Notes: generated from the sequence alone by a model not told the origin. A stretch of DNA of 40,847 nt from Candidatus Saccharimonadota bacterium (GCA_017993025.1 JAGONL010000002.1:1-40847), one strand, 5' to 3'. Counted from the first letter of the stretch, positions 2,960 to 35,499 are shown. Program-made: numbers and translations.

Positions 2960-3897
2960 TTCATCGCCTCCGCACCACCGGTTATTTCGGCTAGTTCCTG
3001 GGTAATTGCTGATTGGCGGGCGCTGTTTGCTGCAAGTGTCAAATCATCTATCAAATCACCGGCATTGTCGCTGGCTGTCTTCATAGCCATCATACGTGAT
3101 GACTGCTCACTAGCCTGGCTCTCTAGGTATGCTTGCCACAACTGAACATCAATAAGCTTTTCAGCCACGTTGTTTAGAACAAATTCAGGTGATGGTTCAA
3201 AAATAGCTTCATTCAAATCGCTAGACACAGCGTCAGTTGATACAGCGGCAGGCAGTAGTCTGTTGTGGGTTACAACTTGTACTACACTAGATTTGTAATC
3301 GGTGTATAGGATGTCGACTGCGTCAGTTTGAGGGTTGAGGGTTGAGGCTTGAGGGTTGAGGCTTTCTTCTTCCTCCTCTTGACTCATATCTCTTGACTCA
3401 TGACTCGTCCCCGTAAACTCAGTTTTTATTGTTTGCAAGATAGGGGCAAGGTCAGCAATAGTAGGGCGCTCTGGCATATTGTTATAACTACCCAAGATAT
3501 TTACGCCTTCAATTTTAACGGCAAACTTACTTGCTTGTTTACCAATTAAAATAAGCTTAGTCTCAATTTTATTATCACGGTCTGTCTGCAATTCTTTCGC
3601 CAGTTGTCGTAGCACGTTAGAGTTATAAGCACCAGCAAGTCCACGGTCGCTTGTAATAACGACCAAAATTCTACTTTTCACTTCGCGAGTTATGAAAAGC
3701 GGGTGTTTTGATACATCTGTTAGCTCACGCAGTCTAGTTAAAATCTGCTTAGCAGTATTGGTGTAATCACGGCTAGAAACAGTAGCTTCTTGGGCACGAC
3801 GCATTTTTGACGCAGCAACAAGCTCCATAGCTTTGGTGATTTGTTTTGTATTTTTTACAGATTTAATTCTGGCTTTAATTTGTTGTGTTGACGCCAT
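2956..3897 (-). CDS. atpG: F0F1 ATP synthase subunit gamma carrying an in-frame repeat-derived insertion
   Basis: 313 aa. N-terminal MASTQQIKARIKSVKNTKQITKAMELVAASKMRRAQ and C-terminal ITQELAEITGGAEA are typical gamma helices. About 27 extra residues (SHESRDMSQEEEEESLNPQASTLNPQT) are encoded by repeat DNA at 3327-3407. Confidence 0.93.
   Translation of the reverse strand: MASTQQIKARIKSVKNTKQITKAMELVAASKMRRAQEATVSSRDYTNTAKQILTRLRELTDVSKHPLFITREVKSRILVVITSDRGLAGAYNSNVLRQLAKELQTDRDNKIETKLILIGKQASKFAVKIEGVNILGSYNNMPERPTIADLAPILQTIKTEFTGTSHESRDMSQEEEEESLNPQASTLNPQTDAVDILYTDYKSSVVQVVTHNRLLPAAVSTDAVSSDLNEAIFEPSPEFVLNNVAEKLIDVQLWQAYLESQASEQSSRMMAMKTASDNAGDLIDDLTLAANSARQSAITQELAEITGGAEAMK
3327..3407 (-). 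repeat. GAGTCAWGAG-type plus CCTCAACCC-type repeat block lying in frame inside atpG
   Basis: The minus strand reads gagtcatgagtcaagagatatgagtcaagag-gaggaagaagaaag-cctcaaccctcaagcctcaaccctcaaccctcaa. The same words occur in intergenic elements at 3919-3997, 4318-4350, 5898-5929, 6310-6334 and 9736-9799. Confidence 0.85.
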
Positions 3898-10627: not shown

Positions 10628-11245
10628 ATGCCACTGTTATACTTATCGAATCCAGAGCTTTTTTATGCACCTGAAGGATTAGTCGTTGGAGCAAAATATC
10701 CTCACTCTATAGATCCAGCTTGTGCTATTTCGCTTGGTAAAGGTGTTATCTTTAGGTCAAGGTCTGACAAAGCGTATATTCATCCACCAACTACCCACAG
10801 AGGAGCCTCACAGCCAGAGGTACACAAAACTGCATTAACAGCTTGGCTTAGGCACGATATACATGATATAGAAGTTGATTTACTTGACCCAGAACTTGAA
10901 GAAACAAAAAATCTAAATGATTACGCAGATACGGTAGACAGAATTTTTGGCGTTTCTACAACAAACAGACGAATCGTGATTCTGCCACCTAGAGCAGTAA
11001 TTTCACCTCGGACAATGTTTGGAAGAATATCGATGATTTCAGGCCTACTTAATAGCGGGGACATGGTTTGGCACGACCAAGGTTCTTTCGATACGTTAGC
11101 TAAAACAACATTAGAACCCGGAGACATTGTCGCTGCTGAGGGAAGCATAGCAAATAGCATTGCAAACACTTCGATTTCAGGAACTTTGGTCTTTCTAGAG
11201 CAGACGTGCGCAAGAAACAGTTTTACATTTCCAGTTGGTGAGTAG
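10628..11245 (+). CDS. hypothetical protein
   Basis: 205 aa ORF of normal composition. No family recognised. Confidence 0.6.
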   Translation: MPLLYLSNPELFYAPEGLVVGAKYPHSIDPACAISLGKGVIFRSRSDKAYIHPPTTHRGASQPEVHKTALTAWLRHDIHDIEVDLLDPELEETKNLNDYADTVDRIFGVSTTNRRIVILPPRAVISPRTMFGRISMISGLLNSGDMVWHDQGSFDTLAKTTLEPGDIVAAEGSIANSIANTSISGTLVFLEQTCARNSFTFPVGE

Positions 11246-11634: not shown

Positions 11635-11740
11635 TTAAATCTAGGGTTTAGGGGGTGGGGTATATGAAGGAAGAAGGGCTGAGACTGGAGTAAGCTACAA
11701 AGGCTTTCCATTTTTTACTTCGTTTTTCTAATTTGTTTAG

Positions 11741-11760
11741 TCCGCCGGCTGGCGGATTAG
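11741..11760. repeat. TCCGCC-NNNN-GGCGGATTAG palindromic motif, copy 3
   Basis: tccgccggctggcggattag, preceded by tttag as in copy 2 (9861-9886). Confidence 0.75.
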
Positions 11761-11831
11761 TACTTAGTGCTTTGAATTTGCATATTAACCTTGAAATTAC
11801 TTCTAAGACTACTGGTGTTATACTGATATAT

Positions 11832-12347
11832 ATGAACAAGCCTACACTTCATTTACTTATGGGGCTACCAGGAGCCGGGAAGACCACACTTGCAAGAGTT
11901 TTGCAGAAGCTAACCAAAGCCGCCAGACTATCTTCCGACGATTATAGACTGATTATTTATCCCGAACCGACCTTCAGCCAAAAAGAGCATGATGATTTAT
12001 ATGCTCTAATTGACCACAGCGCTGAACATCTATTAGCGGCAGAGCATGACGTAATATATGATGCTAACCTTAATCGCTACAGCCACCGCAAAGAAAAATA
12101 CGACTTGGCCAAAAAATATAATGCCAACGTAATACTATGGTGGGTGTGCACACCAAAAGAACTAGCCAAAGAACGCCGTGTTAAAGAACAAGACAAAAAC
12201 CTTATCCCAGAAGGCGAGACATCAGAGCGAATGTTTGACAGAATTGCAGATATTTTGGAGGAACCAGGAACAGACGAAAAATATATCGAAGTTGACGGAA
12301 CAAAAATTTCAGAAGACGAGATAAGAAAACTGCTTCCAACAACCTAA
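11832..12347 (+). CDS. P-loop kinase/ATPase (AAA_33-like)
   Basis: Trimmed to the ATG at 11832 (MNKPTLHLLMGLPGAGKTTLARVL), which gives Walker A GLPGAGKT. About 171 aa. Confidence 0.65.
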   Translation: MNKPTLHLLMGLPGAGKTTLARVLQKLTKAARLSSDDYRLIIYPEPTFSQKEHDDLYALIDHSAEHLLAAEHDVIYDANLNRYSHRKEKYDLAKKYNANVILWWVCTPKELAKERRVKEQDKNLIPEGETSERMFDRIADILEEPGTDEKYIEVDGTKISEDEIRKLLPTT

Positions 12348-12353
12348 AATTAT

Positions 12354-13196
12354 TTATTTAAATAATTTAAACGGCATGCGGATTACGAATAACACGGCAC
12401 TTAGAAGCAAGATCAGGCCACCTAAAACATAGACACCAAATACACCTGCAATGTGAGTGACAATATTGTGATTACTTCTCCGTGCTCGCCCTAGATTGCC
12501 ATTATCTCTATGGATTTTTTTGGTTGAAACATATAGCGCGCGGTAGTGCAGAGCCTTTTTGATATTCATGTAATCTGCGCCGTTAGCAGTGATTCGCAAA
12601 CTATTATTCTGAACTATTTTCCCGCCCGCACCAGCAAGCCACAGCGACACATCTTGGTCTTCGTGTACCAAATTGTCATCATTGCAGACTTTATCCGATA
12701 TTTTTGCCCAAGCACTGCGCCTTATGGCCATTGTGGCTCCCCACATCGTTATTGTCTGAAATCCTGCTCGAACATACCAGTAGTAGCTATGAGAGAAAAA
12801 AGTTGTTTTAATTCTCTGAAAACCAGGTAAGAAGGATGTTCTGCCTATTCCCGTTAGCCCCATAAGTTCTTGGTCGTTTTCAAAGCTCTTTAAAACAGTT
12901 TCTACCCAGTTAGATTCAATTCTAGAATCCGCGTCTATACGCCCAATAATATCTGAATTAACCGACTCAAACCCCGCACTGCGAGCAAAGCCCCGGCCTT
13001 GGTTTTTCTCTGTAATAACTCGCACAAACTGATATCGCTTAACAATTTCAATTGTTTTGTCTGTACAGTTATTATCCACAACGATGACCTCATCCGGGGG
13101 TACAGTTTGCCGTGCTATGGAATCTAGGCAATCTTTAATTTGGTCTTCTTCGTTATATACCGGGATTACAATGGAAATAGATAGTTTGGCTGTCAT
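12354..13196 (-). CDS. family 2 glycosyltransferase
   Basis: Trimmed to the ATG at 13196. SIVIPVYNEEDQIKDCLDSIARQTVPPDEVIVVDNNCTDKT and RIDADS are GT-A/GT2 motifs. C-terminal TM helix. Confidence 0.8.
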   Translation of the reverse strand: MTAKLSISIVIPVYNEEDQIKDCLDSIARQTVPPDEVIVVDNNCTDKTIEIVKRYQFVRVITEKNQGRGFARSAGFESVNSDIIGRIDADSRIESNWVETVLKSFENDQELMGLTGIGRTSFLPGFQRIKTTFFSHSYYWYVRAGFQTITMWGATMAIRRSAWAKISDKVCNDDNLVHEDQDVSLWLAGAGGKIVQNNSLRITANGADYMNIKKALHYRALYVSTKKIHRDNGNLGRARRSNHNIVTHIAGVFGVYVLGGLILLLSAVLFVIRMPFKLFK

Positions 13197-13270
13197 TACT
13201 AAATATAAGCATATCAGACAATAGCAATCCCAAAGCAAAACGTGTTTTTTTCGATGATGGATCAGACGAC

Positions 13271-13335
13271 AAAAATAGTAGTTCTTCCGACAAGACTTAT
13301 CCTTAGATAAGGTGCGAAGGAAAACTACTATTTTT
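13271..13335. repeat. CTTATCC-hairpin repeat, copy 2 (opposite orientation to copy 1)
   Basis: aaaaatagtagtt...cttatccttagataag...aactactattttt has a 13 bp outer stem. The core matches the reverse complement of 7861-7901. Confidence 0.7.
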
Positions 13336-13441
13336 GCGTTTGAGGCGTAGCGAGAAATGTATGTTCTGCTTTGGGATTGTTATAGCTAGCTTTTAGGGGT
13401 TGAAACTGATATAAATATACATAAGCAATTTATATATAATT

Positions 13442-14557
13442 ATGAGCAAAAAACACAAGAAACAGCCTAAATTAAGCGGTTTTGATAAATTCAAAAGCCA
13501 GCTGGTTGAATTTGTATCTGTACTTCGACCAAATAGTTTAGCTAAAAAAATAGCGTTATGGGTAGTTATTATTATCGCTACACCAACATTCGCTATGTAC
13601 GGTGTAGCTCAGTGGTATATTTATACTCAAAAAGACGTACCCCTAACTATGGGTGCGACATTTGTACCAAACTATGCGCGCTACTTTGACTTAGACCCCA
13701 AAGAAGTATTTGGTGAAATGATAAATGACCTTGGTCTTAAACGCTTCCGTCTTGTTAGTTACTGGAAGGACATGGAAAGAACTCCCGGGGTCTACGATTT
13801 TGAAGAACTAGACTGGCAATTTGCCATGGCGGAGGAAGCTGGAGCTGAAATATCACTGGCTATTGGACTGCGTCAGCCACGCTGGCCAGAATGTCATGGT
13901 CCTGCTTGGGCAATGGAAAAACCAATGAGTGAATGGAGTGTTGATTTAAAGAACTTTATGGGCGAGGTGATAGACAGATACAAATCAAGCCCTGCTCTCA
14001 AAGAATATCAGCTAGAAAACGAATTTTTCTTGAGTGTTTTCGGCGAATGTCCTGACTTTAGCCGTGAAAGGTTGGTTGATGAGTTTAATTTTGTAAAGGC
14101 CAGAGACCCAGACCATCCGGTGATTGTTAGCCGTAGCAATAACGCGATTGGCTTGCCGTTAAATGAACCAGTCGCTGACAAATATGCAGTAAGTATCTAC
14201 AAGCGAGTGTGGGACAAAACTTTAACTAAGCGCTATTTTGAATATCCATTTCCGGCGTGGTTTTACGCGGGTCTAGCTGGCGGAAGTCAGATAGTGCAAG
14301 ATAGAGATTTGTTTATTCACGAACTCCAAACAGAGGCTTGGTTGCCAGAAGGCATGAGCATGAAAACCGCACCAGTTGAAGAACTGTACAAATCGTTAAG
14401 CCCCGAGAGATTAAAGCACCGTATAGATTACGGGGTGGCTACTGGCATGCGCACAATAGATGTCTGGGGGGTAGAGTGGTGGTACCACATGAAAACCAAA
14501 CGCGACGCACCAGAACTTTGGAACACTGCAAAATCTGAATTTGAACGCCTGCGCTAA
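13442..14557 (+). CDS. membrane-anchored TIM-barrel glycoside hydrolase (clan GH-A-like)
   Basis: 371 aa with an N-terminal TM helix. LKRFRLVSYWKDMERTPGVYDFEELDWQF and the catalytic-type YQLENEFF motif resemble GH5/GH42-like enzymes. Confidence 0.55.
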   Translation: MSKKHKKQPKLSGFDKFKSQLVEFVSVLRPNSLAKKIALWVVIIIATPTFAMYGVAQWYIYTQKDVPLTMGATFVPNYARYFDLDPKEVFGEMINDLGLKRFRLVSYWKDMERTPGVYDFEELDWQFAMAEEAGAEISLAIGLRQPRWPECHGPAWAMEKPMSEWSVDLKNFMGEVIDRYKSSPALKEYQLENEFFLSVFGECPDFSRERLVDEFNFVKARDPDHPVIVSRSNNAIGLPLNEPVADKYAVSIYKRVWDKTLTKRYFEYPFPAWFYAGLAGGSQIVQDRDLFIHELQTEAWLPEGMSMKTAPVEELYKSLSPERLKHRIDYGVATGMRTIDVWGVEWWYHMKTKRDAPELWNTAKSEFERLR

Positions 14558-20959: not shown

Positions 20960-20975
20960 GCCGCCCTGGTGGAAT
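20960..20975 (+). repeat. 16 nt duplicate of the tRNA-Leu 5' end
   Basis: gccgccctggtggaat is identical to 21026-21041. Confidence 0.8.
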
Positions 20976-21127: not shown

Positions 21128-21400
21128 TATTTTTTTGAATTCGACTCGTAAAGTCGCTGGCTTCAATGGGCTTTTCGCGCCCATACCTACGACTCTCATT
21201 TTTTAATCGCAAAAAACGAGAGGCAAAAAAGCGACAGCCTGCTGAGAATACATAACTAGTTCCAGATACCAGCAACTTTCGCGCTGTAAGAACGCAAGCG
21301 TCCAGTAAACAATTTAAATAATGTATGTTTCTGGATTAGCTTACAGCTTGACTCGAAAGTCACTGATTGGAGCTAATCAGTATTTCAGGGGCTGGAGGAG
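21128..21400 (-). repeat. structured repeat element, copy A (candidate ncRNA; 5' domain type 1, 3' module x)
   Basis: Colinear with copies B, C, D, E and F when read on the minus strand. See the first finding for helices and covariation. Confidence 0.85.
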
Positions 21401-21434
21401 CTGCAAGGGCAACTATTGGGTAAGATTCAAAGAG

Positions 21435-21463
21435 TTGTAGTCTAAGTGTTAGTGTGTTATAGT
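21435..21463 (+). promoter_or_regulatory. sigma70-like promoter upstream of the cassette leader
   Basis: TTGTAG (21435-21440), 17 nt, then TGtTATAGT (-10 at 21458-21463). The ATG at 21470 is 7 nt downstream, so the transcript may be leaderless. Confidence 0.35.
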
Positions 21464-21469
21464 ATATTT

Positions 21470-21577
21470 ATGAACAAAGTTAACCTAAAGGCAGTCTTAA
21501 ACATTTCTCGACAGCAAACTGCCGTATTCTTTGGTTTTACTTCATTTATACCGGCGGTAACTCCTAGAACGTATTAA
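21470..21577 (+). CDS. candidate Phe-rich leader peptide (35 aa)
   Basis: MNKVNLKAVLNISRQQTAVFFGFTSFIPAVTPRTY has 4 Phe codons within 8 codons (21527-21549). It lies between a promoter-like site and a terminator, upstream of the PheRS-like operon. Confidence 0.3.
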   Translation: MNKVNLKAVLNISRQQTAVFFGFTSFIPAVTPRTY

Positions 21578-21598
21578 ACGACCATAAATAATCACAAG

Positions 21599-21627
21599 AG
21601 CGACCGCCACCAAAAGCGGTCGTTTTT
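21599..21627 (+). terminator. intrinsic terminator-like hairpin plus U-tract (candidate attenuator)
   Basis: agcgaccgc-caccaaaa-gcggtcgtt followed by ttttt. It lies 35 nt upstream of the ATG at 21662, on the same strand. Confidence 0.55.
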
Positions 21628-21661
21628 AATTTTAAAAATATTAGGAGAATAGGAGAAAATT

Positions 21662-22216
21662 ATGGAAATTTACAAAGAACTACTAGAGCGTGTTGCTGAA
21701 CCACATCAGTGGCACTTATCTGGCACTAGAAAGGGTAAAGTAAAAATAGATGAGGGTAAAGAACTACTGAAAGTAGAGCTTGGCCAAAAAATTCACACTA
21801 TTCAGTTGCAGATTGCCGACCCAACAAAAGCACGTCGAAGACCCGAATTACTAAGAACGGATAGACTCATGCGTCGTATGTACAGTACAACTCGTGACGG
21901 ATTGTTGGTCGGTAGATTAATTGGTATGTCGGTCAACGGTCGTCCGGTGGAAGGTGTTCCTAGTTTTGGATCACACAAAAGAAACATGAATCAGGAATGG
22001 CAAGATCGTTTAGAAGCGGATGGTGACAACCTGATAGGATTACAAATTGCTGGATGTATATTACAGCAAGCGATTAATATTGTCCCTGATCAAGAACTGC
22101 CTGAGGCCTATGAGCAACGCTCAACGCTTAATGACCTAGATATAAGGGCAAACGGCATTCTACTGGGAATTAAGTCGGTTCGACTGGATATGAGCAGATC
22201 GGGACTATCAGTATGA
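21662..22216 (+). CDS. hypothetical protein, first gene of the aaRS-like cassette
   Basis: 184 aa with a strong RBS (aggagaataggagaaaattATG). Its stop overlaps the next start (ATGA at 22213-22216). No family recognised. Confidence 0.7.
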   Translation: MEIYKELLERVAEPHQWHLSGTRKGKVKIDEGKELLKVELGQKIHTIQLQIADPTKARRRPELLRTDRLMRRMYSTTRDGLLVGRLIGMSVNGRPVEGVPSFGSHKRNMNQEWQDRLEADGDNLIGLQIAGCILQQAINIVPDQELPEAYEQRSTLNDLDIRANGILLGIKSVRLDMSRSGLSV

Positions 22217-23343
22217 AAATGTACATTAAACCAATAACAAAAACTGAGCTCAAGAAGTACCTCAGCATTAAAGACTTAACGCAGGATACCAATCATTCGA
22301 TTGGTATCCTAGCAAATATGATCATGGACCGTATGCGTCTAACTCATCCCAATTCCGATGTGCGGGTTTATCGAAACAATCCTGCGGTAACTACGGAGGA
22401 TAATTACGATAATCTGTGTATCAAAGCCGACAATATTAGTCGTTCGTCTGCCTATACCCACTACATAGACAGTACTCACGTTTTAAGAACCCACACATCA
22501 GCACAAATTCCGGGCATATTGCGTAGCCTCGCTAAAGATAGCACTTGGAGCGACGTGCTTATTTTAATTCCAGGCCTTGCCTATAGACGAGACGTCACAG
22601 ATAAAAAGCATGTAGGTGAAGTACATATGTTAGATATGTGGCGCATTGTAAGAAGTGATAAGGTAAAAGTCATCGCAAAGGATGATCTACTTCATGTTGT
22701 TGAAGATATCGCATCTGTTGCATCACCAGGATGGAACTTGAGAATCATTGATTCACCACACCCGTATACAAAACAAGGCATAGAAGTAAATGCCGTGCTA
22801 GGTGATCGTGATATAGAAATACTTGAATGCGGATTAGTAGGAGATGAGGTCATGAAAAAAGCTGGCCTAGACCCAAGTGTCTGTTCGGGCTGGGCACTTG
22901 GTATGGGTCTGGACCGTCTTACAATGACACTAAAAAATATTCCCGATGTTCGATACTTGCGATCTTCAAATCCCAAAATTGCTTTTCAAATGAAAGATCT
23001 CTCGAAATATATAGAGGTGTCACATCAACCGGCTATAATTCGAGACATGTCCTACAGTGTACCGGAGGGATACGTTGAAGAAGATGTGAATGAAGATATC
23101 CGAATAGCACTTGGAAAACGAGCAGGTATTTTAGAAAGTGTAGAAATTCTAAACGAAACAAGCTACAAAGATCTGCCAGAACAAGTACGTACTAGACTAG
23201 GCATCTCTAAAGATCAAAAAAATCTGCTTGTACGAGTAACACTAAGACATCTTAATCGAAGTCTAACCAACGATGAGGCAAATACCATTTACGATCAGGT
23301 TTACGATGTTATTAACTATGGATCAGGAGGATATCCGTCATGA
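22213..23343 (+). CDS. single-chain phenylalanyl-tRNA synthetase-like protein (PheS-type class II core fused to a C-terminal FDX-ACB domain)
   Basis: 376 aa. LRTHTSAQIPGILR, PGLAYRRD and EILECGLVGDEVMKKAGLDPSVCSGWALGMGLDRLTMTLKNIPDVRYL parallel PheS motifs 2 and 3. The C-terminal PAIIRDMSYSVPEG...LLVRVTLRHLNRSLTNDEAN resembles the ferredoxin-fold anticodon-binding domain of PheT and mitochondrial PheRS. Confidence 0.75.
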   Translation: MKMYIKPITKTELKKYLSIKDLTQDTNHSIGILANMIMDRMRLTHPNSDVRVYRNNPAVTTEDNYDNLCIKADNISRSSAYTHYIDSTHVLRTHTSAQIPGILRSLAKDSTWSDVLILIPGLAYRRDVTDKKHVGEVHMLDMWRIVRSDKVKVIAKDDLLHVVEDIASVASPGWNLRIIDSPHPYTKQGIEVNAVLGDRDIEILECGLVGDEVMKKAGLDPSVCSGWALGMGLDRLTMTLKNIPDVRYLRSSNPKIAFQMKDLSKYIEVSHQPAIIRDMSYSVPEGYVEEDVNEDIRIALGKRAGILESVEILNETSYKDLPEQVRTRLGISKDQKNLLVRVTLRHLNRSLTNDEANTIYDQVYDVINYGSGGYPS

Positions 23344-23427
23344 ACGGCATGAAACAACACTACTGCCTAAAATTTGGTAGACTAACCATATGAAACAAGA
23401 AAATAATAAAACAGAGGGGATAATGCT

Positions 23428-24168
23428 ATGACTGAATTACTATATTTACAGGATTTTGACACTGTAACTTGCGCTGCTGTTGTAGAGCATATAGGTAAAA
23501 CGGGTGACGGCAGAGCAGATATTGTGCTTGATAGAACCTGCTTTTATCCGCGTGGGGGTGGGCAGGACTGGGACAAGGGTGAAATATCTTCTGGTAATTT
23601 AAAACTTATTGTTGAAGAAGTTCGACTTGATGAAAACGGCAATGTACATCACGTAGGCACACTGGCTGGCGGAATGTTTATGGTCGGAGAAGATGTAGAC
23701 TGCAGTGTTGATACAGAAAGACGCATAATTAACACTAGATTGCACTCTGGTGGACACGTTGTTGACATGGCTGTTGACAGTCTTGAACTCGATTGGATTG
23801 CTACAAAAGGACAACACTATCCAGAGTTATGCGCAATAGAATATTCAGGAACTTGGGATGTCGAAAAGGCAGAGGAACTCCGATCAAGTATTGAGCAAAA
23901 AACTAATGAGTTTGTAAAGAGCGCATACCAAACAAGCCTGCGCTTCATGCCTTTGCAAGAAATGCATACTGTATGTCGTCACGTACCCGAGAATATTCCG
24001 AAAAACAAGCCAGGCCGAGTAGTGATGTATGGTGAAGATTTTGGTATTCCATGCGGTGGCACTCACGTAAAAAATCTCTCGGAAATTGGTGAGATTAAAG
24101 TTTCAAAGCTAAAAGAGAAAAAAGGTGTGATTCGTTTAAACTATGAGGTAGTTGGAATTAACGCCTAA
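23428..24168 (+). CDS. AlaX-like aminoacyl-tRNA trans-editing protein (Thr/Ala-tRNA synthetase second additional domain)
   Basis: 246 aa with FYPRGGGQDWDKG, an HxxxH zinc motif (HSGGH) and a CxxxH motif (CGGTH). Confidence 0.8.
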   Translation: MTELLYLQDFDTVTCAAVVEHIGKTGDGRADIVLDRTCFYPRGGGQDWDKGEISSGNLKLIVEEVRLDENGNVHHVGTLAGGMFMVGEDVDCSVDTERRIINTRLHSGGHVVDMAVDSLELDWIATKGQHYPELCAIEYSGTWDVEKAEELRSSIEQKTNEFVKSAYQTSLRFMPLQEMHTVCRHVPENIPKNKPGRVVMYGEDFGIPCGGTHVKNLSEIGEIKVSKLKEKKGVIRLNYEVVGINA

Positions 24169-24189
24169 GTGAAACAAAACTATTAAAGC

Positions 24190-24466
24190 CCTGTAGCCCG
24201 TCCACCCTCTGAAATACTGATTCATGACAATCAGCCACTTCTGAGTCAAGCATTAAGCAAATCCAGAAACATATATCTTAAAGTTGTTTACTGGACGCTT
24301 GCGTCCTTAATGCGCAGAAGTGGGTGGTATCTGTCATGAGTCATGTATTCTCAATAGGGTGTCGCTTTCTTTGCTTCATTTCTTTGCGACCAAAGAAATG
24401 AAGGCCTAGCACGACTGGCAAAAGTCGTATGTTCGTAGGTATGGGCGCGAAAAGCCCATTGTAGCC
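24190..24466 (+). repeat. structured repeat element, copy B (5' domain type 2, 3' module y)
   Basis: See the first finding. Its 3' end abuts the sortase gene start on the same strand. Confidence 0.85.
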
Positions 24467-24505
24467 TATTTGAACAGTGCTAGCCTGAGAAATGTTATAC
24501 TGTTA

Positions 24506-25876
24506 ATGATTATGGCTGACGATAATACAAACAATAGCTCCGATGATGATTTGCTGGCAGAACTTAGGGCGAGAACTGCAATGCTTGCTGAGAAAGTTCA
24601 TGGCCACGAAGATCCAGCAAATAGAGTTTTGAAGCTTAATGACACTTCAGAAGATGGTGACGATTTTGTTGACTCGCTGAAACAGGACAAGCCAGAAATA
24701 CAACAGACAAAATCTGAAACTTTAGAGCTTTTTGACTCAAAAGGCAATCCTGCAGTTGAACTTGTGCGCCAAAAACTGGCAAATCTATACAAAAAAGAAC
24801 CAGATGCTAAAACAGAAGCTATAGAATCGTATCAGGCAGGCAAGCACCGCTCTAAGCACCAAATGGTTATGTATAATTTATCGACTTCAGGCAGATCCCT
24901 AGCCGATATTCAGACTCAGTGGCACGAATATTACAGTGGACTTCCTGACGAAGAAAAGCACCAGGTTTGGCAAGAATTCTATGAAAATCAGGGTCAAGTT
25001 TCAGCATTTGAAATGGCTCAACCGAAAACACAAAAATCGATCACCCCAGCACCACATAAAAAATCTAAAGCCCCTAAAATTTTCGCTGTTCAAAACCCCG
25101 GAGACACTCGTACAGTTGGCGAAATCAAAAACTCGCTCTATGACAAAGTCAGTGCAGGGGGCAAGCTAACTGCTGTCCATCACTTTAAATCACTTTTGTT
25201 TGGGTTGGGACTAGCGTCATTGGTTGGGTTAATTATTACGTTTACTTTCTTTAATGAGGTGTTTATCGCACCATTTATAAGCCCCGGCAAAAACGTATCT
25301 GCCACACCTATAATCGGTAATCAAACAGGGGATGTTGGTCCGGAGTCTAAAATTATTATTCCTAAAATTAACCTAGAAGTTCCTGTTGTTTTTGGCATGA
25401 CTACGATTGACGAAAAACAGGTTCAGTCAGAGCTTGAAAACGGGGTTGTGCACTATGCCAGCACCCCAAACCCTGGGGAAAGTGGAAACGTGGCGATTGT
25501 TGGGCATTCTAGCAATAATATCCTGAACTCCGGTAAGTATAAATTTGCTTTTGTACTACTTAAAAAACTAGAAGCAGAGGATACATTTTTTGTTCAAAAA
25601 GACGGTATTCGTTACACCTATAAAGTCTACAAAAAAGAAGTTGTAGGACCAGATAATGTTGCCGTGTTAGACACTCAAGAAAAACCGAACACAATTACCC
25701 TGATTACCTGTGACCCGCCTGGTACGTCTATAAATAGATTAATAATAACGGCAGAGCAGATATCGCCTGACCCTCTAGGCAATAAACCTAGCACGGCCAT
25801 TCCGGTAACTGCGGAGGAAGTAGACAAGCTTCCTAGCAACGCGCCAAGTTTATGGTCGCGAATCTGGCCCTTCTAG
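24506..25876 (+). CDS. sortase-family transpeptidase with a long N-terminal region and TM anchor
   Basis: The track ORF starts at TTG 24470, inside repeat B, so it is trimmed to the ATG at 24506. Catalytic His (IVGHSSNN), TLITCDPPG Cys motif, TM helix LLFGLGLASLVGLIITFTFF. Confidence 0.8.
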   Translation: MIMADDNTNNSSDDDLLAELRARTAMLAEKVHGHEDPANRVLKLNDTSEDGDDFVDSLKQDKPEIQQTKSETLELFDSKGNPAVELVRQKLANLYKKEPDAKTEAIESYQAGKHRSKHQMVMYNLSTSGRSLADIQTQWHEYYSGLPDEEKHQVWQEFYENQGQVSAFEMAQPKTQKSITPAPHKKSKAPKIFAVQNPGDTRTVGEIKNSLYDKVSAGGKLTAVHHFKSLLFGLGLASLVGLIITFTFFNEVFIAPFISPGKNVSATPIIGNQTGDVGPESKIIIPKINLEVPVVFGMTTIDEKQVQSELENGVVHYASTPNPGESGNVAIVGHSSNNILNSGKYKFAFVLLKKLEAEDTFFVQKDGIRYTYKVYKKEVVGPDNVAVLDTQEKPNTITLITCDPPGTSINRLIITAEQISPDPLGNKPSTAIPVTAEEVDKLPSNAPSLWSRIWPF

Positions 25877-26155
25877 TCGTCTCGCAGACGACACTACTTT
25901 TCGGCTACAGGCGAGCAAAGGGGCTAGTGCCAGCCCCTTAAACCCCTCGCCATACTTTTCCCTACAGGCGCAAAAGTATGCAAAAGCCCCGCAGCCTATC
26001 TGCGAAACATCTTTAAAGACAAACTAACCAGAACCTAGTCGCGCCCTGAGGACGCAAGCGGTCAAAAGTGAGTTTAATAACTGAGTACTTTTGACTTGGC
26101 TCAGGGCTTGATTCGCCTAGCCCCTGATTGTCTTTAAGCGTTTACAGAGGCTGAC
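25877..26155 (-). repeat. structured repeat element, copy F (divergent type 3)
   Basis: See the first finding. Its 3'-terminal hairpin gtcgtct-cgc-agacgac (25876-25892) sits at the sortase stop codon. Confidence 0.8.
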
Positions 26156-26184
26156 CTAGCTGCACGAGCTACGTAGCTACTGTG

Positions 26185-26427
26185 GCTCAACCACCCCTTG
26201 AAATACTGATTCATGACAATCAGCCACTTCTGAGTCAAGCATTAAGCAAATCCAGAAGTACATAACCATTGAATTACTTACTGGACGCTTGCGTTCTTAA
26301 TGCGCAGAAGTGGGTGGTATCTGTCTTGAGTAATGTATCTTCAATAGGGTGTCGCTTTTTTGCCTCTCGTTTTTTGCGATTAAAAAATGAGAGTCGTAGG
26401 TATGGGCGCGAAAAGCCCGTTGTAGCT
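26185..26427 (+). repeat. structured repeat element, copy C (5' domain type 2, 3' module x)
   Basis: See the first finding. Head-to-head with copy F. Confidence 0.85.
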
Positions 26428-26454
26428 TGGCGATTTTTCAAAAGTCGTTATTCT

Positions 26455-27939
26455 TTATCTATCCTCAGCCGTGCGCATGAATGTACGGATTAGCTGGTAT
26501 GGCTCTGCTACGGTAGTGCCGGTGACGGCTGTGTACATAAAGTCGTGGCTGTTATTGAAAAAACTTCCTAGTTGACCGTTGGCAGATACCATATCATAGC
26601 GGTTACTTCCGTCAAAATCTATCATCAGCTGTTTTCCGGCGATGCTTAGTAGAAAATGTTGTCCGTCAATCCAATTTAGTTTTGTGCCTTCGTCTATTTG
26701 GTTTTCTAACTTAAAACTGTATGACCTATCAGCGTCAAACTCATGACTAGCAAGAGTCTGCGTACCACGGACTACAATAACGCTAGAATCTGCGGAAATC
26801 TCAAGCTCTGAAGGATTATCTACCCGCAGAACCGTTGTTGGTACGGGAATAGAAGAGAAGTCGTTGTTTTTAAGGGAATTAACAGGGTCGTTATAAATAA
26901 TTGCTCTATTCTCAACTGGCGAACTTATGCCTAGTACTATGGCATCTCCTAGCTTGGACATATCTAGAAGATATTTTGGGCTCTCTTTAAAACTGCGTAT
27001 TTTATGGGTATCATTTCCGTTTTTAAGATAAGCAGTAACGGTTCCGGCTTCAGAGTTTTTGGACGTTATATACAGTACAGTGTCGTCGCCAAACGTTTTA
27101 TAAGCCAGCACGTCTTGCAGTACAACACTGAAAATTCCGTCGCGCGTATCGGCCTGATATAGAGTTTTGCTCGTACCGTCATATAAATACAACAAATCGT
27201 TTTTTCTTGACCGTAGACTAACTTCTGAATACGGCACAGTAGGGAAGAGGGTCTTTAGTTTTTTAGATTTTGTACCGTCTTCTCTATCAATTATTACGTA
27301 CTCTGAAGTGCTGGCAGTACGGTAAACGGCAAGGAAGTTCTTGTTGTCATCTGCCCAATCAATAACCTCCCAGGTGCCGGGCTCTTTTGTGTCAAGCAAT
27401 CCTAATGGTAGGGGCAGATTAATATAGTCAAACTGGCTTTTAGTTATGTCAATAACGCGCATTAATAACGGATTATCTGTAAAAGAAGTTACTAACCATC
27501 TTTTATCTATGCTTTGCGACATCATATTAGGGATTGCGGGCATATTGATGGCAAGTTCGCTGTCCAGAACCTCTGGCACCATCCGTGCGTATGTAAGCCG
27601 ACGCAGGCTTCCACCCTCTAGCGCTAGGTTTCGGCTCCAGGTTCTGTAACCATCACGCCGTAGTTCAATATCGTAAGATCCTGCTGGCAAAACCAACCTA
27701 GCGTCTGTTCGTCCACGTTGTTTTTGACCATTAAGAAAAATTTCTGCAGATTCTGGCTTGCTATCTAGATACACCAATCCGTTTTGAATAACTTCACCAG
27801 TTTGCCTATCTATCGAATAACCGTTAATCAAATACACAAAAACAACTGTTGCAATAGCTATCGCAATACCAATCAGCACGTACATAATCATCAGTTTAGT
27901 TTTTTTTCGTCGCTTTTTAAGTGGGTCTAAATAGTCCAT
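26455..27939 (-). CDS. PEGA domain-containing membrane-anchored protein
   Basis: 494 aa with an N-terminal TM helix. PEGA-like segment SKPESAEIFLNGQKQRGRTDARLVLPAGSYDIELRRDGYRTW, followed by a large beta-rich region. Confidence 0.65.
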   Translation of the reverse strand: MDYLDPLKKRRKKTKLMIMYVLIGIAIAIATVVFVYLINGYSIDRQTGEVIQNGLVYLDSKPESAEIFLNGQKQRGRTDARLVLPAGSYDIELRRDGYRTWSRNLALEGGSLRRLTYARMVPEVLDSELAINMPAIPNMMSQSIDKRWLVTSFTDNPLLMRVIDITKSQFDYINLPLPLGLLDTKEPGTWEVIDWADDNKNFLAVYRTASTSEYVIIDREDGTKSKKLKTLFPTVPYSEVSLRSRKNDLLYLYDGTSKTLYQADTRDGIFSVVLQDVLAYKTFGDDTVLYITSKNSEAGTVTAYLKNGNDTHKIRSFKESPKYLLDMSKLGDAIVLGISSPVENRAIIYNDPVNSLKNNDFSSIPVPTTVLRVDNPSELEISADSSVIVVRGTQTLASHEFDADRSYSFKLENQIDEGTKLNWIDGQHFLLSIAGKQLMIDFDGSNRYDMVSANGQLGSFFNNSHDFMYTAVTGTTVAEPYQLIRTFMRTAEDR

Positions 27940-28070
27940 ATTTTGTTTGGGTGTCCTACTATACTCAATTATGTCATATGTTGCTCATTTTTACCTTGCG
28001 AAATTAGCGCATAAGAGATACGATATAGTAGCATAGGGTAACAAACAAAAGACTCCAGGAGTAAACATAC

Positions 28071-29174
28071 GTGGGCACACAACATCAAGACGTTATTGAA
28101 ATAAACGGCAAAAAATACGACGCAGTTACAGGCCGGCTTATCGTAGACCAAAGGCAAGAGTCAGAAAATGTTAACGCAAAGATGCCCCAACCTAAAAGCG
28201 GAGTGGTGCTAGATGGCTTTGTTAAAAGAACTCATCATGCAGACATAGCTCACGCACCAGCCTCTCATCACAAAAAACCTGTTCAGAAATCACAAACATT
28301 AATGCGCCAAGTAGTCAAAAAGCCGGCGACTCAACCATTATCACCACCGAAACCCGTATCAAAGCACCAACTTGTTAAGCCAACACTAGTTGCATCAACA
28401 CACATGCAAAAAAGCGCATCTGAGGTTAAAAAGAACCCTTTCGTGTCTAGATATGGCGACATTCAGCACCGCTCTACAGTAGTTAAAAAAGTTCAAGCCT
28501 TGGAGGTTAAAAAGCCAGAGCAATATACTGTCTCATCTGTAACACCACAAATATCTAGTCACAATGCAAGTGCTGTTGAGCACAACAGTGGTGGTCGTAG
28601 TAAAGCTACAAGCATGATGCTGGAAAGAGGGCTTGCAAACGCAACTAGCCATGAACTTCCAACACTGCCGTCCCAGCATCAGAACAAACGTAAAAAACTA
28701 GCCCACAAACTGGGTATAAGCGCCCGGGCAATGGCTATAAGCACTACAGTTCTAGCCGGAGTGTTACTTGGTGGGTTTTTTGCAATACAGAATGTACCGA
28801 ATCTATCTATGAGGGTTGCGGCAGCACGTGCAGGCTTTGACGCCAGCATGCCTGGATACAGCCCCTCTGGTTTTAGCTTTAAGGGTCCAATTAAATACAG
28901 TCCAGGACAAGTAACAATTTCTTTTGATTCAAACACTGACGACAGAGAATATACGGTAACTCAAAGATCCACAAACTGGAACAGCGATGCACTATTATCA
29001 AACTACGTAGTTACAAGCAACAAGCAGTACCAGACGTATCTAGACCGTGGTAGAACTCTATATATTTATGATGAATCAAACGCAACATGGATAGATAACG
29101 GTGTTTGGTATCAGGTTGAAGGTAACAGCGACATGACAACCGACCAACTTGTGCGCATCGCTTCCAGCATCTAG
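28071..29174 (+). CDS. hypothetical membrane-anchored protein (C-terminal DUF4367-like region)
   Basis: 367 aa with a GTG start, a basic low-complexity N-terminal half, one TM helix (AISTTVLAGVLLGGFFAI) and a C-terminal globular domain. Confidence 0.6.
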   Translation: MGTQHQDVIEINGKKYDAVTGRLIVDQRQESENVNAKMPQPKSGVVLDGFVKRTHHADIAHAPASHHKKPVQKSQTLMRQVVKKPATQPLSPPKPVSKHQLVKPTLVASTHMQKSASEVKKNPFVSRYGDIQHRSTVVKKVQALEVKKPEQYTVSSVTPQISSHNASAVEHNSGGRSKATSMMLERGLANATSHELPTLPSQHQNKRKKLAHKLGISARAMAISTTVLAGVLLGGFFAIQNVPNLSMRVAAARAGFDASMPGYSPSGFSFKGPIKYSPGQVTISFDSNTDDREYTVTQRSTNWNSDALLSNYVVTSNKQYQTYLDRGRTLYIYDESNATWIDNGVWYQVEGNSDMTTDQLVRIASSI

Positions 29175-29311
29175 GGACTAGCCTCAGTTTAAAGTTGCAG
29201 GGTTGAAGAGTTACAGTGTTATGATTATGGAACTTTTAACTCTGGAACTCTTATACTTTTAACCTCCTATTACCCATATTTCAGTGTCTCTTGTGATGTA
29301 CAATTGTAGTT

Positions 29312-29809
29312 ATGGCTAATTACAAAGGACACGTAGCGGGTGGGGCAGTTGCGGGGATTATATATTACGGAGTTATATCTTATGTACCGATTGAGAGATT
29401 TGCTGAGGCTGCAGGTCTATTGTACGACTGGCAAGCAATATTTGCTGTGATTGTTATATCTACGCTTTTTGGGCTTTTCCCGGATGTAGACACCAACAGC
29501 AAAGCTCAGGATTTATTCTTTGGTATTGTGTTTCCTCTAGATATATTGCTGTTGTGGGCAGGTAGTATAGTGGCTGCTGCGTATTTAGGGCTAATATCAA
29601 TGCTACCCATTATTGGCCACCACCGTGGATGGACACACAAAAAATGGGCAATGATTGTTATACCACTGCCGATACTACTAATACCGTACCTATATGACAG
29701 TGCAAGTCTACCGATTTCTACAATCTATTACGGAGCTGCGGTTACTGGCTATTTTAGCCACCTGTTACTTGACGGTCTTATCTGGCGCAAGTTCCGCATA
29801 AAAAACTAA
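29312..29809 (+). CDS. membrane-bound metal-dependent hydrolase-like protein (YdjM/DUF457 family)
   Basis: 165 aa with N-terminal KGH, FPDVDT, HRGWTH and SHLLLD motifs across TM helices. Confidence 0.65.
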   Translation: MANYKGHVAGGAVAGIIYYGVISYVPIERFAEAAGLLYDWQAIFAVIVISTLFGLFPDVDTNSKAQDLFFGIVFPLDILLLWAGSIVAAAYLGLISMLPIIGHHRGWTHKKWAMIVIPLPILLIPYLYDSASLPISTIYYGAAVTGYFSHLLLDGLIWRKFRIKN

Positions 29810-29835
29810 TCTTAGTTTGTAATTTTATCAAGAAT

Positions 29836-30079
29836 CTAGCTACAAGTGGCTGTTTCGGCGCCACACCCCCGACTATCTTTTTCCTACAGGTGAAAAAGAT
29901 AGCAAAAACCCCGCACCCGACTGAAGAAACGTGATTAAAATCAAGGTACCAGACATACTCGCGCGACAAGAACGCAAGCGTCCAATAAGCAATTTAAATT
30001 AAGTATGCTTTTGGATTAGCTTGTCGCTTGATTCGAGCATGCCTGATTGATTTCATCAGTTTTTCAGAGGGTGGTTGGC
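29836..30079 (-). repeat. structured repeat element, copy D (type 3)
   Basis: See the first finding. Confidence 0.85.
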
Positions 30080-30086
30080 TACATAC

Positions 30087-30143
30087 CAGAGTTCGACCAG
30101 GCTCTGATTGTCTCTCAGGAGTTTACAGAGGGCTGACTAGCTA
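30087..30143 (-). repeat. partial 5' fragment of a type 3 (F-like) structured repeat
   Basis: ccagagttcgaccaggctctgattgtctctcaggagtttacagagggctg parallels 26101-26153 of copy F. Confidence 0.6.
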
Positions 30144-30169
30144 CAAAGACATGTAGCTACAGAGCACTT

Positions 30170-30410
30170 GTAGCCCTCCAGCCCCTGAATTACTGATTAG
30201 TTCCAATCAGTGACTTTCGAGTCCAGTGGCAAGATAATCCAGAAACACATAACTTCAGAAATTGTTTACTGGACGCTTGTCGTTCTTGCCAAGCGAAAGT
30301 TACTGGTATTTGGAACTAGTCATGTATCTTCAGCAGGCTGTCGCTTTCTTTGCTTCGTTTCTTTACGACAAAAGAAATGAAGGCCTGGTGTGGCGGGCAA
30401 AGCCACAAAC
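30170..30410 (+). repeat. structured repeat element, copy E (5' domain type 1, 3' module y)
   Basis: See the first finding. Confidence 0.85.
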
Positions 30411-30463
30411 CAAACAACAAAAATCTAAAAATGCGGGTCAAGCGAAGCGCTTGAAATTTATTT

Positions 30464-35387: not shown

Positions 35388-35499
35388 TAAAAACCCCCAC
35401 CTCTGTTAAAATATTCTCTTAGTAGCCTATGTAGCTACAAAAATTCACAAAAACCCGCTTGTCAGTGTTTATGAATTTTAGAGGAGAAGATTTGTGCAA

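Follow-up and report, generated by a model that had tools for sequence, protein, structure and literature searches.

Repetitive extragenic palindromes (REPs) are 20-50-nt palindromes preceded by GTAG, and in bacterial interspersed mosaic elements (BIMEs) REPs of types y and z1/z2 are joined in inverse orientation (PMC8266576; PMC2817692). TnpA-REP binds the single-stranded REP and not its complement, and needs both GTAG and a conserved bulge (PMC8266576; PMC2817692), while compensatory changes are frequent in the hairpins of REPINs (PMC3116915). Here we analyse a family of structured repeats in a 40.8-kb stretch of DNA from a Candidatus Saccharimonadota bacterium (GCA_017993025.1 JAGONL010000002.1:1-40847), referred to below as the window; other loci and contigs with which it was compared carry L-numbers. 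Six full copies (A to F) and one 5' fragment, with a unit length of ~245-280 nt, lie within ~9 kb of the window. As in REPs, BIMEs and REPINs, a GTAG-type head stands 5' of an imperfect palindrome on one strand, locations are extragenic or intercistronic, copies cluster locally, bulges and loops are conserved and compensatory change is seen; and, as E. coli BIMEs join y with z1/z2, the copies form inverse pairs of different types. On this combination of head and palindrome, extragenic insertion, inverse mixed pairs, conserved bulges, compensatory change and clustering, we tentatively rank first the reading that the copies are a giant REP/BIME/REPIN-like element, non-autonomous, insertional and recognised as a single strand.

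The family appears to be previously undescribed, and a limited literature search found no report of it for the Saccharibacteria phylum. Saccharibacteria and candidate phyla radiation (CPR) genomes are about 1 Mb, tightly packed and held to be poor in repeats and mobile DNA, so that structured repeats in operons and between convergent genes are unexpected, and their density within 9 kb adds to this. If the copies are a giant analogue of REPs and BIMEs, single-strand-recognising transposition would carry larger and more complex structures, and a cognate enzyme that has gone unrecognised would be predicted; if they act as RNA, an uncultivated lineage would have yielded a new class of large RNAs. 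Under either reading, such repeats break assemblies of metagenome-assembled genomes (MAGs) and cause spurious open reading frame (ORF) calls, one of them a '173-aa' gene in L035; they also mark gene-gain hot spots, among them the SrmL-encoding segment described below.

Fold, covariation and the constrained strand

Consensus folds were computed with RNAalifold on six copies and then on nine. The shared fold is a ~52-pair rod with a three-way junction at its apex, followed by 3' hairpins, and each unit has eight helices plus the extra 3' hairpins. In rod helices 1-5 the 5' arm pairs with the 3' arm, forming a ~170-nt imperfect palindrome. At the apex, helix 5 meets an AU-loop hairpin and a CUUG mini-hairpin in the three-way junction; 3' of it come helix 8 and the strong hairpin H9, in most cases a second one, H10, and finally the tail. 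It is the internal loops and apex that are most conserved in the element, and not its termini; the single-stranded segments GARUCAAG and GGUAUCUG are conserved, and a U.G pair is nearly invariant.

The original prediction, drawn from the sequence of the window, had pictured a chain of local hairpins; the architecture is instead the long rod with its three-way-junction apex. Its long-range P1, its P3 and P4 and its AU-loop hairpin are all confirmed within this fold. A local CTGATT-loop-AATCAG hairpin, also proposed, is not part of it: F-type copies are unable to form it, these bases pair long-range in the RNAalifold folds, and a downstream segment provides the partner of the supposed loop, with changes that compensate each other (CATGACA/TGTCATG, AGTTCCA/TGGAACT and TTAAAGACA/TGTCTTTAA). 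The proposed GGACG-CTTG-CGTCC hairpin survives in part: the CUUG mini-hairpin is backed by the variants CGC-CCCA-GCG in L037 and ACCU-AAA-AGGU in L036, whereas the GGA pairs with UCC of the adjacent hairpin. The pairing for an H-type pseudoknot, or for a switch, involving helix 8 (GUCGC/GCGAC or GCGGG/CCUGU) and H9 covaries between two classes of subtypes and nowhere else, which amounts to roughly one event; such a structure is a possibility.

Covariation across the fold is extensive. In a MAFFT alignment of nine copies, 91.8% of pair cells were standard, compared with 74.4% in shuffles (0 of 500 reached the observed value) and 33-43% when partners were slid, and both sides had changed in 34 of 57 pairs. 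When 15 copies from six sources were aligned with the model, 94.2% of cells were paired, against 72.0% in shuffles (0/500) and 31-43% when slid, with both sides changed in 44 of the 57 pairs. The latter alignment was fitted to the structure, which leaves the MAFFT result as the cleaner test, and many of its 15 copies are related, so that cell counts overstate the independent events; pair-level measures and slid controls are less affected. The helix-preserving covariation that had been predicted thus lies far above chance in both the shuffle and the slid controls, with both alignments.

The two strands are not equivalent. On the strand that had been read as the element, G.U outnumbers A.C in consensus pairs by 42:8 in one count and 59:10 in another. 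The opposite strand reached -36.3 kcal/mol, against -48.6 for the element strand; copy B alone gave -106.4 kcal/mol (z = -8.4) and its complement -100.9 (z = -7.2). The G.U excess and the better folding of the element strand indicate that the constrained molecule is a single strand with the GTAG-type head at its 5' end. Together with the two covariation controls, they bear out the proposal that selection acts on a single-strand fold, of RNA or of single-stranded DNA (ssDNA), rather than on a protein or on a plain terminal inverted repeat. These strand data discriminate the strand, not RNA from ssDNA. Compensatory hairpin change is known from REPINs as well, and these are recognised as ssDNA (PMC3116915; PMC8266576), so compensatory change alone does not point to RNA.

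It is possible, if rather doubtful, that the function lies at the RNA level and that the copies are multi-copy structured non-coding RNAs or cis-acting RNA modules. They would be transcribed outward from the head-to-head junctions, or would lie within operon transcripts, where the rod and its conserved loops would act by binding a protein or by determining how the mRNA is processed, its stability or its polarity; their spread through the genome would be secondary, through duplication, recombination or natural transformation. The complex architecture argues for such a function, with its eight helices, three-way junction, covarying CUUG-type mini-hairpin, conserved GARUCAAG and GGUAUCUG and U.G pair. 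So do stems that vary in sequence like loops (identity 0.71 in stem columns and 0.72 in unpaired columns) and are nonetheless 94% paired, and an element strand that out-folds its complement. However, tolerance of G.T pairs and compensatory change are expected of ssDNA-recognised elements too (PMC3116915, PMC8266576), and promoter- and terminator-like sites at the copies show no excess over shuffles. The RNA-level and the REP-like readings are compatible, since REPs act on mRNA too.

Large Rfam RNAs (OLE, ROOL, GOLLD, raiA, HEARO/IscB omega-RNA, 6S and SRP) resemble the repeats in size, in covarying multi-helix architecture and in conserved loops. The repeats differ from them in being multi-copy, insertionally polymorphic, mosaic and truncated, and in having no Rfam match at E<=10. 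With Rfam 15, the two tRNAs alone reached the gathering score in the window; no match at E<=10 overlapped the copies between 20900 and 30600, and none was found at E<=1 in L012, L018, L038, L036 or L002. The statement that the fold matches no known RNA class thus withstood a covariance-model check. An unlikely further reading makes the rod a new class of large structured RNA specific to Saccharibacteria or the CPR, used by the host or by the element, either as a protein-binding module for operon polarity or mRNA fate or as the RNA part of an undescribed mobility system, with the GTAG/GCTAC heads serving as DNA recombination or expression signals. A T-box or other leader of tRNA-synthetase-like genes was rejected, with no RF00230 match at E<=10 and most copies convergent with or antisense to their neighbours.

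Copies, heads and head-to-head junctions

Copies were placed with a repeat finder, by reading of the sequence, and by nhmmer profile and covariance-model searches, and their boundaries were refined using the head and tail motifs. All four approaches bear out the six copies and the fragment, with the coordinates and strands that had been predicted, and neither nhmmer nor the covariance model found further copies in the window. The repeat finder linked the six copies through direct and inverted relations, such as the inverted pair I1 between A and C (242 nt, 81% complementary).

Each unit runs from a GTAG-type head through the ~170-nt palindrome to one to three 3' hairpins, and a second (T)TGTAGCY closes most of the copies in the window; this frequent closure by a second TGTAGC is a difference from REPs. 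Copy A (21128-21405, minus strand; 206.5 bits with the covariance model) has its head, TGCAGC, at 21400-21405 and its rod core at 21204-21396; its tail TTGAAGCC ends at 21159, and an extra hairpin extends to about 21128. Copy B (24192-24466, plus strand; 195.2 bits) lies in sense orientation immediately upstream of the sortase gene, with head TGTAGC at 24192, rod core at 24201-24392, tail TTGTAGCC at 24459-24466 and an extra hairpin module, CGACTggcaaaAGTCG, that also occurs in L001b. Copy F, of F type (25903-26164, minus strand; 165.1 bits), comprises head TGCAGCT at 26158-26164, rod core at 25962-26155, an H9 hairpin whose loop contains CCTGTAGG, and tail CTGTAGCC ending at 25903. It faces copy C (26181-26427, plus strand; 201.4 bits), with head TGTGGCT at 26181-26187, rod core at 26190-26382 and tail TTGTAGCT at 26420-26427.

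Further downstream, copy D (29838-30083, minus strand; 187.8 bits) has head TGTAGCC at 30077-30083, rod core at 29884-30075, an H9 hairpin with the CCTGTAGG loop, and tail TTGTAGCT ending at 29838. Abutting D at its head, and oriented like it, is the F-type 5' fragment of ~57 nt (30087-30145, minus strand). Copy E (30169-30412, plus strand; 185.4 bits) starts with head TGTAGCC at 30169-30175, followed by the rod core at 30177-30371; its apical mini-hairpin carries a 1-nt insertion (CGCTTGTCG), and its 3' hairpin is GTGGCgggcaaaGCCAC.

The head reads TGTAGC in B, D, E, the fragment, L012, L002, L036 and a remnant in L021, TGCAGC in A, F, L018 and L035, and TGTGGC in C, and is separated from helix 1 by 4-7 nt; L037 and L001b have no clear head. 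The elements contain TGTAGC 10 times in about 1.6 kb, against an expectation of about 0.8 (about 12-fold enrichment); the motif is also found in the H9 loop of D, F and G types, and at the 3' end a subterminal hairpin, GGGCgcgaaaaGCCC, is followed by TTGTAGCC. The two ends of a unit thus bear the same motif in direct and not inverted orientation (TGTAGCY ... TTGTAGCY). Reading of the copies revealed neither terminal inverted repeats within the unit nor a variable flanking duplication, the hallmarks of miniature inverted-repeat transposable elements (MITEs).

Heads meet in GCTAC/GTAGC palindromes of variable spacing. The F/C junction contains the perfect palindrome AGCTACGTAGCT (26167-26178) within a run of AGCTACnn-like motifs. 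Between the fragment and E, TAGCTACA arms (30138-30145 and 30152-30159) flank AAGACA, giving TAGCTACA-AAGACA-TGTAGCTA, and the palindrome TGTAGCTACA lies at 30152-30161; in L035 the junction reads GAGCTAC-C-GTAGCTC, and palindromes of this kind are also present at the D/E, L002 and L036 pairs. An isolated TGTAGCTACA palindrome occurs at 35430-35439, between a response-regulator gene and the second tRNA, with no copy nearby. Inverse pairs always combine different subtypes (F/C, fragment/E, G-type with D-like in L002, and the pairs of L035 and L036). The proposed head-to-head pairing of different subtypes therefore stands for F/C and D/E, which are tight, with the same arrangement in L002, L035 and L036; A/B is not a tight pair and brackets a 2.8-kb three-gene segment.

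Insertion, exchange and distribution among Saccharibacteria

Four syntenic relatives, L021/L022 and L023/L024 (sortase 87% identical in both) and L025 and L026 (67%), share the gene order of the window and lack the copies; neither nhmmer nor the covariance model found a copy in L021-L026. The copies are therefore insertions. In these relatives the sortase gene follows tRNA-Leu within 100-250 nt, which identifies the whole window segment 21128-24466 (A, three genes and B) as an insertion, and the sortase-PEGA spacer measures 38-181 nt, compared with 579 nt in the window. Movement is inferred from presence and absence, and the insertion boundaries are not defined to the nucleotide, as the empty-site spacers have diverged. 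The core of the original interpretation is upheld; an insertional repeat family, which it had not considered, is shown by the syntenic relatives.

That the repeats arise from chance similarity or faulty assembly is hardly credible. The window matches a metagenomic contig of 40,844 nt, and the metagenomic origin is the one point in favour of an artefact; the same arrangement recurs in independent assemblies from other samples (L006-L011), which argues against it, as do the homologous copies in five other Saccharibacteria sources and the covariation that 0 of 500 shuffles reached.

The segment between A and B (21662-24168, plus strand), absent from the four syntenic relatives, encodes three proteins: a 184-aa ORFan (21662-22216), SrmL (22213-23343; NCBIfam NF051887, 'PheS-related mystery ligase SrmL', 399 bits at a cutoff of 300) and an AlaXM-like editing-domain protein (23428-24168; 115 bits, below cutoff), all on the plus strand. 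The ORFan yielded one self-hit among 1.8 billion representatives and an AlphaFold model with a pLDDT of 37. The segment raises the improbable alternative that each copy is the long structured end of a cargo-carrying transposon or integrative cassette, the tails (GGCTACA...TGTAGCY) being its outer termini, with A...B loaded and F/C and D/E empty. This would account for three genes that the relatives lack and that adjoin tRNA-Leu, a classic integration site; the outer edges of F/C and A...B do read as short inverted termini (GGCTACA/GGCTTCA ... TGTAGCY), and pairs are also found in other genomes. Against it, solo copies are common (B-like L012, L018 and L037), L001a and L001b bracket four genes in direct and not inverted orientation, and conservation is highest at the internal loops and apex instead of the termini, while short repeated AGCTAC motifs lie on the inner, head side. 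Nor does A...B contain a transposase or integrase: the 184-aa ORF was rejected as a recombinase, having no Pfam, NCBIfam, PHROG or PDB match and an unconfident model.

Several smaller features surround this segment. Both the window (20960-20975) and L021 (5911-5926) repeat the 5' end of tRNA-Leu as a 16-nt copy (gccgccctggtggaat), placed about 66 nt upstream of the tRNA, and in L023 a partial copy of the anticodon arm lies downstream of it (3372-3386); these partial copies look like scars of older integrations at this tRNA. Between A and the 184-aa ORF (21430-21660) there is a possible 35-codon ORF (ATG about 21471) and a terminator-like hairpin with a T-run (about 21598-21632), which gave a weak sub-threshold match to RsaE.

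Modules have been exchanged among copies. A is a mosaic of an E-like 5' arm (91%) and an H9 identical to that of C (100%), and B combines C-like arms (86% and 93%) with an E-like H9 (88%). The hairpin module CGACTggcaaaAGTCG is common to B and L001b, which belong to different genomes and subtypes. Fragments of the 5' part stand directly in front of full copies and share their orientation: the fragment before D in the window, and 2419-2453 before L001b in L001. The window fragment has an orthologue in L021/L022, a remnant of ~75 nt at the corresponding YdjM-GluRS locus, which indicates that the family is older than the split of these lineages and that this locus is a hot spot.

A 22-base gapped DNA pattern retrieved genuine relatives only in the Saccharibacteria MAGs L001 and L002 and the metagenome contigs L012, L013, L018 and L019; eight other matches (L003-5, L014-17 and L020) were due to chance and were discarded by nhmmer. 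Divergent copies in L035, L036 and L037 were reached through a conserved small ORF. At least four subtypes exist: the A-E type, the F type, a 'G type' (L001b, L002F and L036) and, in L035 and L036, additional partner types. Among the Saccharibacteria that the family spans, identity between orthologous proteins is only about 65-80%. Several MAG or metagenome contigs end inside copies (L001, L002, L008, L012 and L013), as expected of multi-copy repeats, which suggests that further copies exist beyond those counted.

A second set of insertions lies in an operon ending with dinB. The operon, ORF1-small ORF-dinB, is compact in L043-L052, with 3-4-nt spacers, and these spacers carry copies in L001/L018, L002, L035, L036 and L037. 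It is a conserved Saccharibacteria three-cistron operon (L001, L002, L035-L037 and L043-L052) composed of a 59-73-aa ORF starting M(K/S/R)IYYFGEL, an 87-97-aa ORF without a family match, and dinB, and a conserved motif, CATTYGTAGCCG..., lies upstream of it in L001, L035 and L036. The '173-aa' gene called between the small ORF and dinB in L035 (10400-10921) consists mostly of an element copy (10678-10872) and its head-to-head partner, and is probably a spurious call.

These distributions bear on the RNA-level function considered above in both directions. Sense orientation within transcription units, seen for the six dinB-operon copies and for B, would suit it, as would persistence across Saccharibacteria whose orthologues are about 65-80% identical. 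A, C, D, E and F, however, lie antisense to the closest genes or converge with them; the copies show turnover instead of orthologous conservation, being absent from close syntenic relatives and differing in type and position at the same hot spot; and selfish repeats typically show such mosaics and truncated fragments.

Candidate mechanism and search for a mobilising enzyme

The preferred reading, that of a giant REP/BIME/REPIN-like element, builds on the following observations: the single-strand fold of the head-bearing strand is preserved through compensatory changes; copies insert into extragenic and intercistronic spacers and exchange modules; and they gather head against head, inversely oriented and never with a partner of the same subtype. 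We propose that an enzyme acting in trans, from a gene elsewhere in the genome, would take the folded head-bearing strand as its substrate; by analogy with REPs, it would be of the HUH/Y1 single-strand DNA transposase type. Such an enzyme might use the GTAG head and the fold, and cut and rejoin at TGTAGC motifs. Head-to-head pairs of identical copies would form long perfect palindromes and so may be lost. Transcripts of copies inside transcription units should also fold, and, to judge from REPs, probably exert a secondary effect on mRNA 3'-end stability or operon polarity.

A number of observations weigh against this reading. At 250-280 nt, the units are 5-10 times longer than REPs (20-50 nt) and 2-3 times longer than REPINs (about 100 nt), and a multi-helix rod with a three-way junction and 3' modules, in place of a simple stem-loop, is an architecture more typical of functional RNAs. 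E and several copies of other genomes lack the 3' TGTAGC tail, and neither target-site duplications nor excision or circular junctions were seen. All six dinB-operon copies are sense-oriented, which hints at constraint at the RNA level, although they may represent as few as three independent events. The 40.8-kb window contains no Y1 gene or other mobilising enzyme, and no cognate REP-associated tyrosine transposase (RAYT) flanked by the same repeats was found in the window or at the RAYT loci of relatives. A Y1/RAYT gene near the F-type remnant in L021 was rejected as the mobiliser, as it has short palindromes of its own (AAGGGACTGTCCTTT) and the loci of its homologues lack the rod element. 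Being too long and too elaborate in fold, and with no cognate RAYT found, the element is not a member of the REP family as defined.

Other mobile elements offer partial parallels. The repeats resemble IS200/IS605 and its non-autonomous derivatives (PATEs) in folding on one specific strand and in lacking terminal inverted repeats and variable target duplications; their 5' boundary and 3' end each bear a short conserved motif, as in IS200/IS605, where such motifs are cleavage sites selected through guide tetranucleotides beside hairpins (PMC8266576). IS200/IS605 hairpins are small and subterminal, in contrast to a 170-nt rod, and the copies here alternate in orientation within 9 kb, with no TnpA or TnpB in the window. 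Integron attC sites likewise conserve structure over sequence, are recognised as a folded single strand and flank gene cassettes. They are, however, simple hairpins of 57-141 nt with R''-L''/L'-R' boxes, arrayed in one orientation beside intI, and the repeats depart from them in size, in alternating orientation and in the absence of an integrase from the window. MITE-type repeats (ERIC/IRU, Correia/NEMIS and RUP) are non-autonomous, intergenic and 100-300 nt long; they are transcribed together with their neighbours into RNAs whose long hairpins influence mRNA processing. They have terminal inverted repeats and a target-site duplication (e.g. TA), and their hairpin consists of the paired inverted repeats. 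The elements described here, unlike ERIC, Correia and RUP, lack terminal inverted repeats in each unit and a target duplication, and their fold is more elaborate.

Pfam scans and precomputed domain calls, covering essentially all ORFs of the window, agree with the earlier statement that it encodes no transposase, integrase, RT, TnpB/IscB or Cas protein. Its genes include an ATP synthase operon, SmpB, glycosyltransferases, HAD hydrolases, sortase, PEGA, YdjM, GluRS and two-component systems. A phage or plasmid origin was rejected, with no match in phage and plasmid collections (blastn) or in IMG/VR, and neither a compositional island nor a replication-skew switch was seen. Two candidate partner genes from L001/L002 were likewise dismissed: a Nudix gene, since the window ORF beside A is unrelated to the Nudix protein, and an 87-95-aa ORF, which is a conserved member of the dinB operon that is present also without the element.

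The L021 locus (11690-13915, also in L022) holds its RAYT-like Y1_Tnp gene within perfect 20-bp inverted repeats, AAGGGACTGTCCTTTAACAG. Beside it lies a 408-aa ORF without a family match, and both are bracketed by a ~55-nt direct repeat of the GluRS 3' end. The adjacency of this RAYT and the remnant looks like a shared hot spot. Homologues of the RAYT in L027-L034 have short AAAGACAGTCTTT-like palindromes nearby, and the rod element is absent from these loci; RAYTs with AAAGACAGTCTTT-like palindromes form a separate small REP system in the Saccharibacteria phylum.

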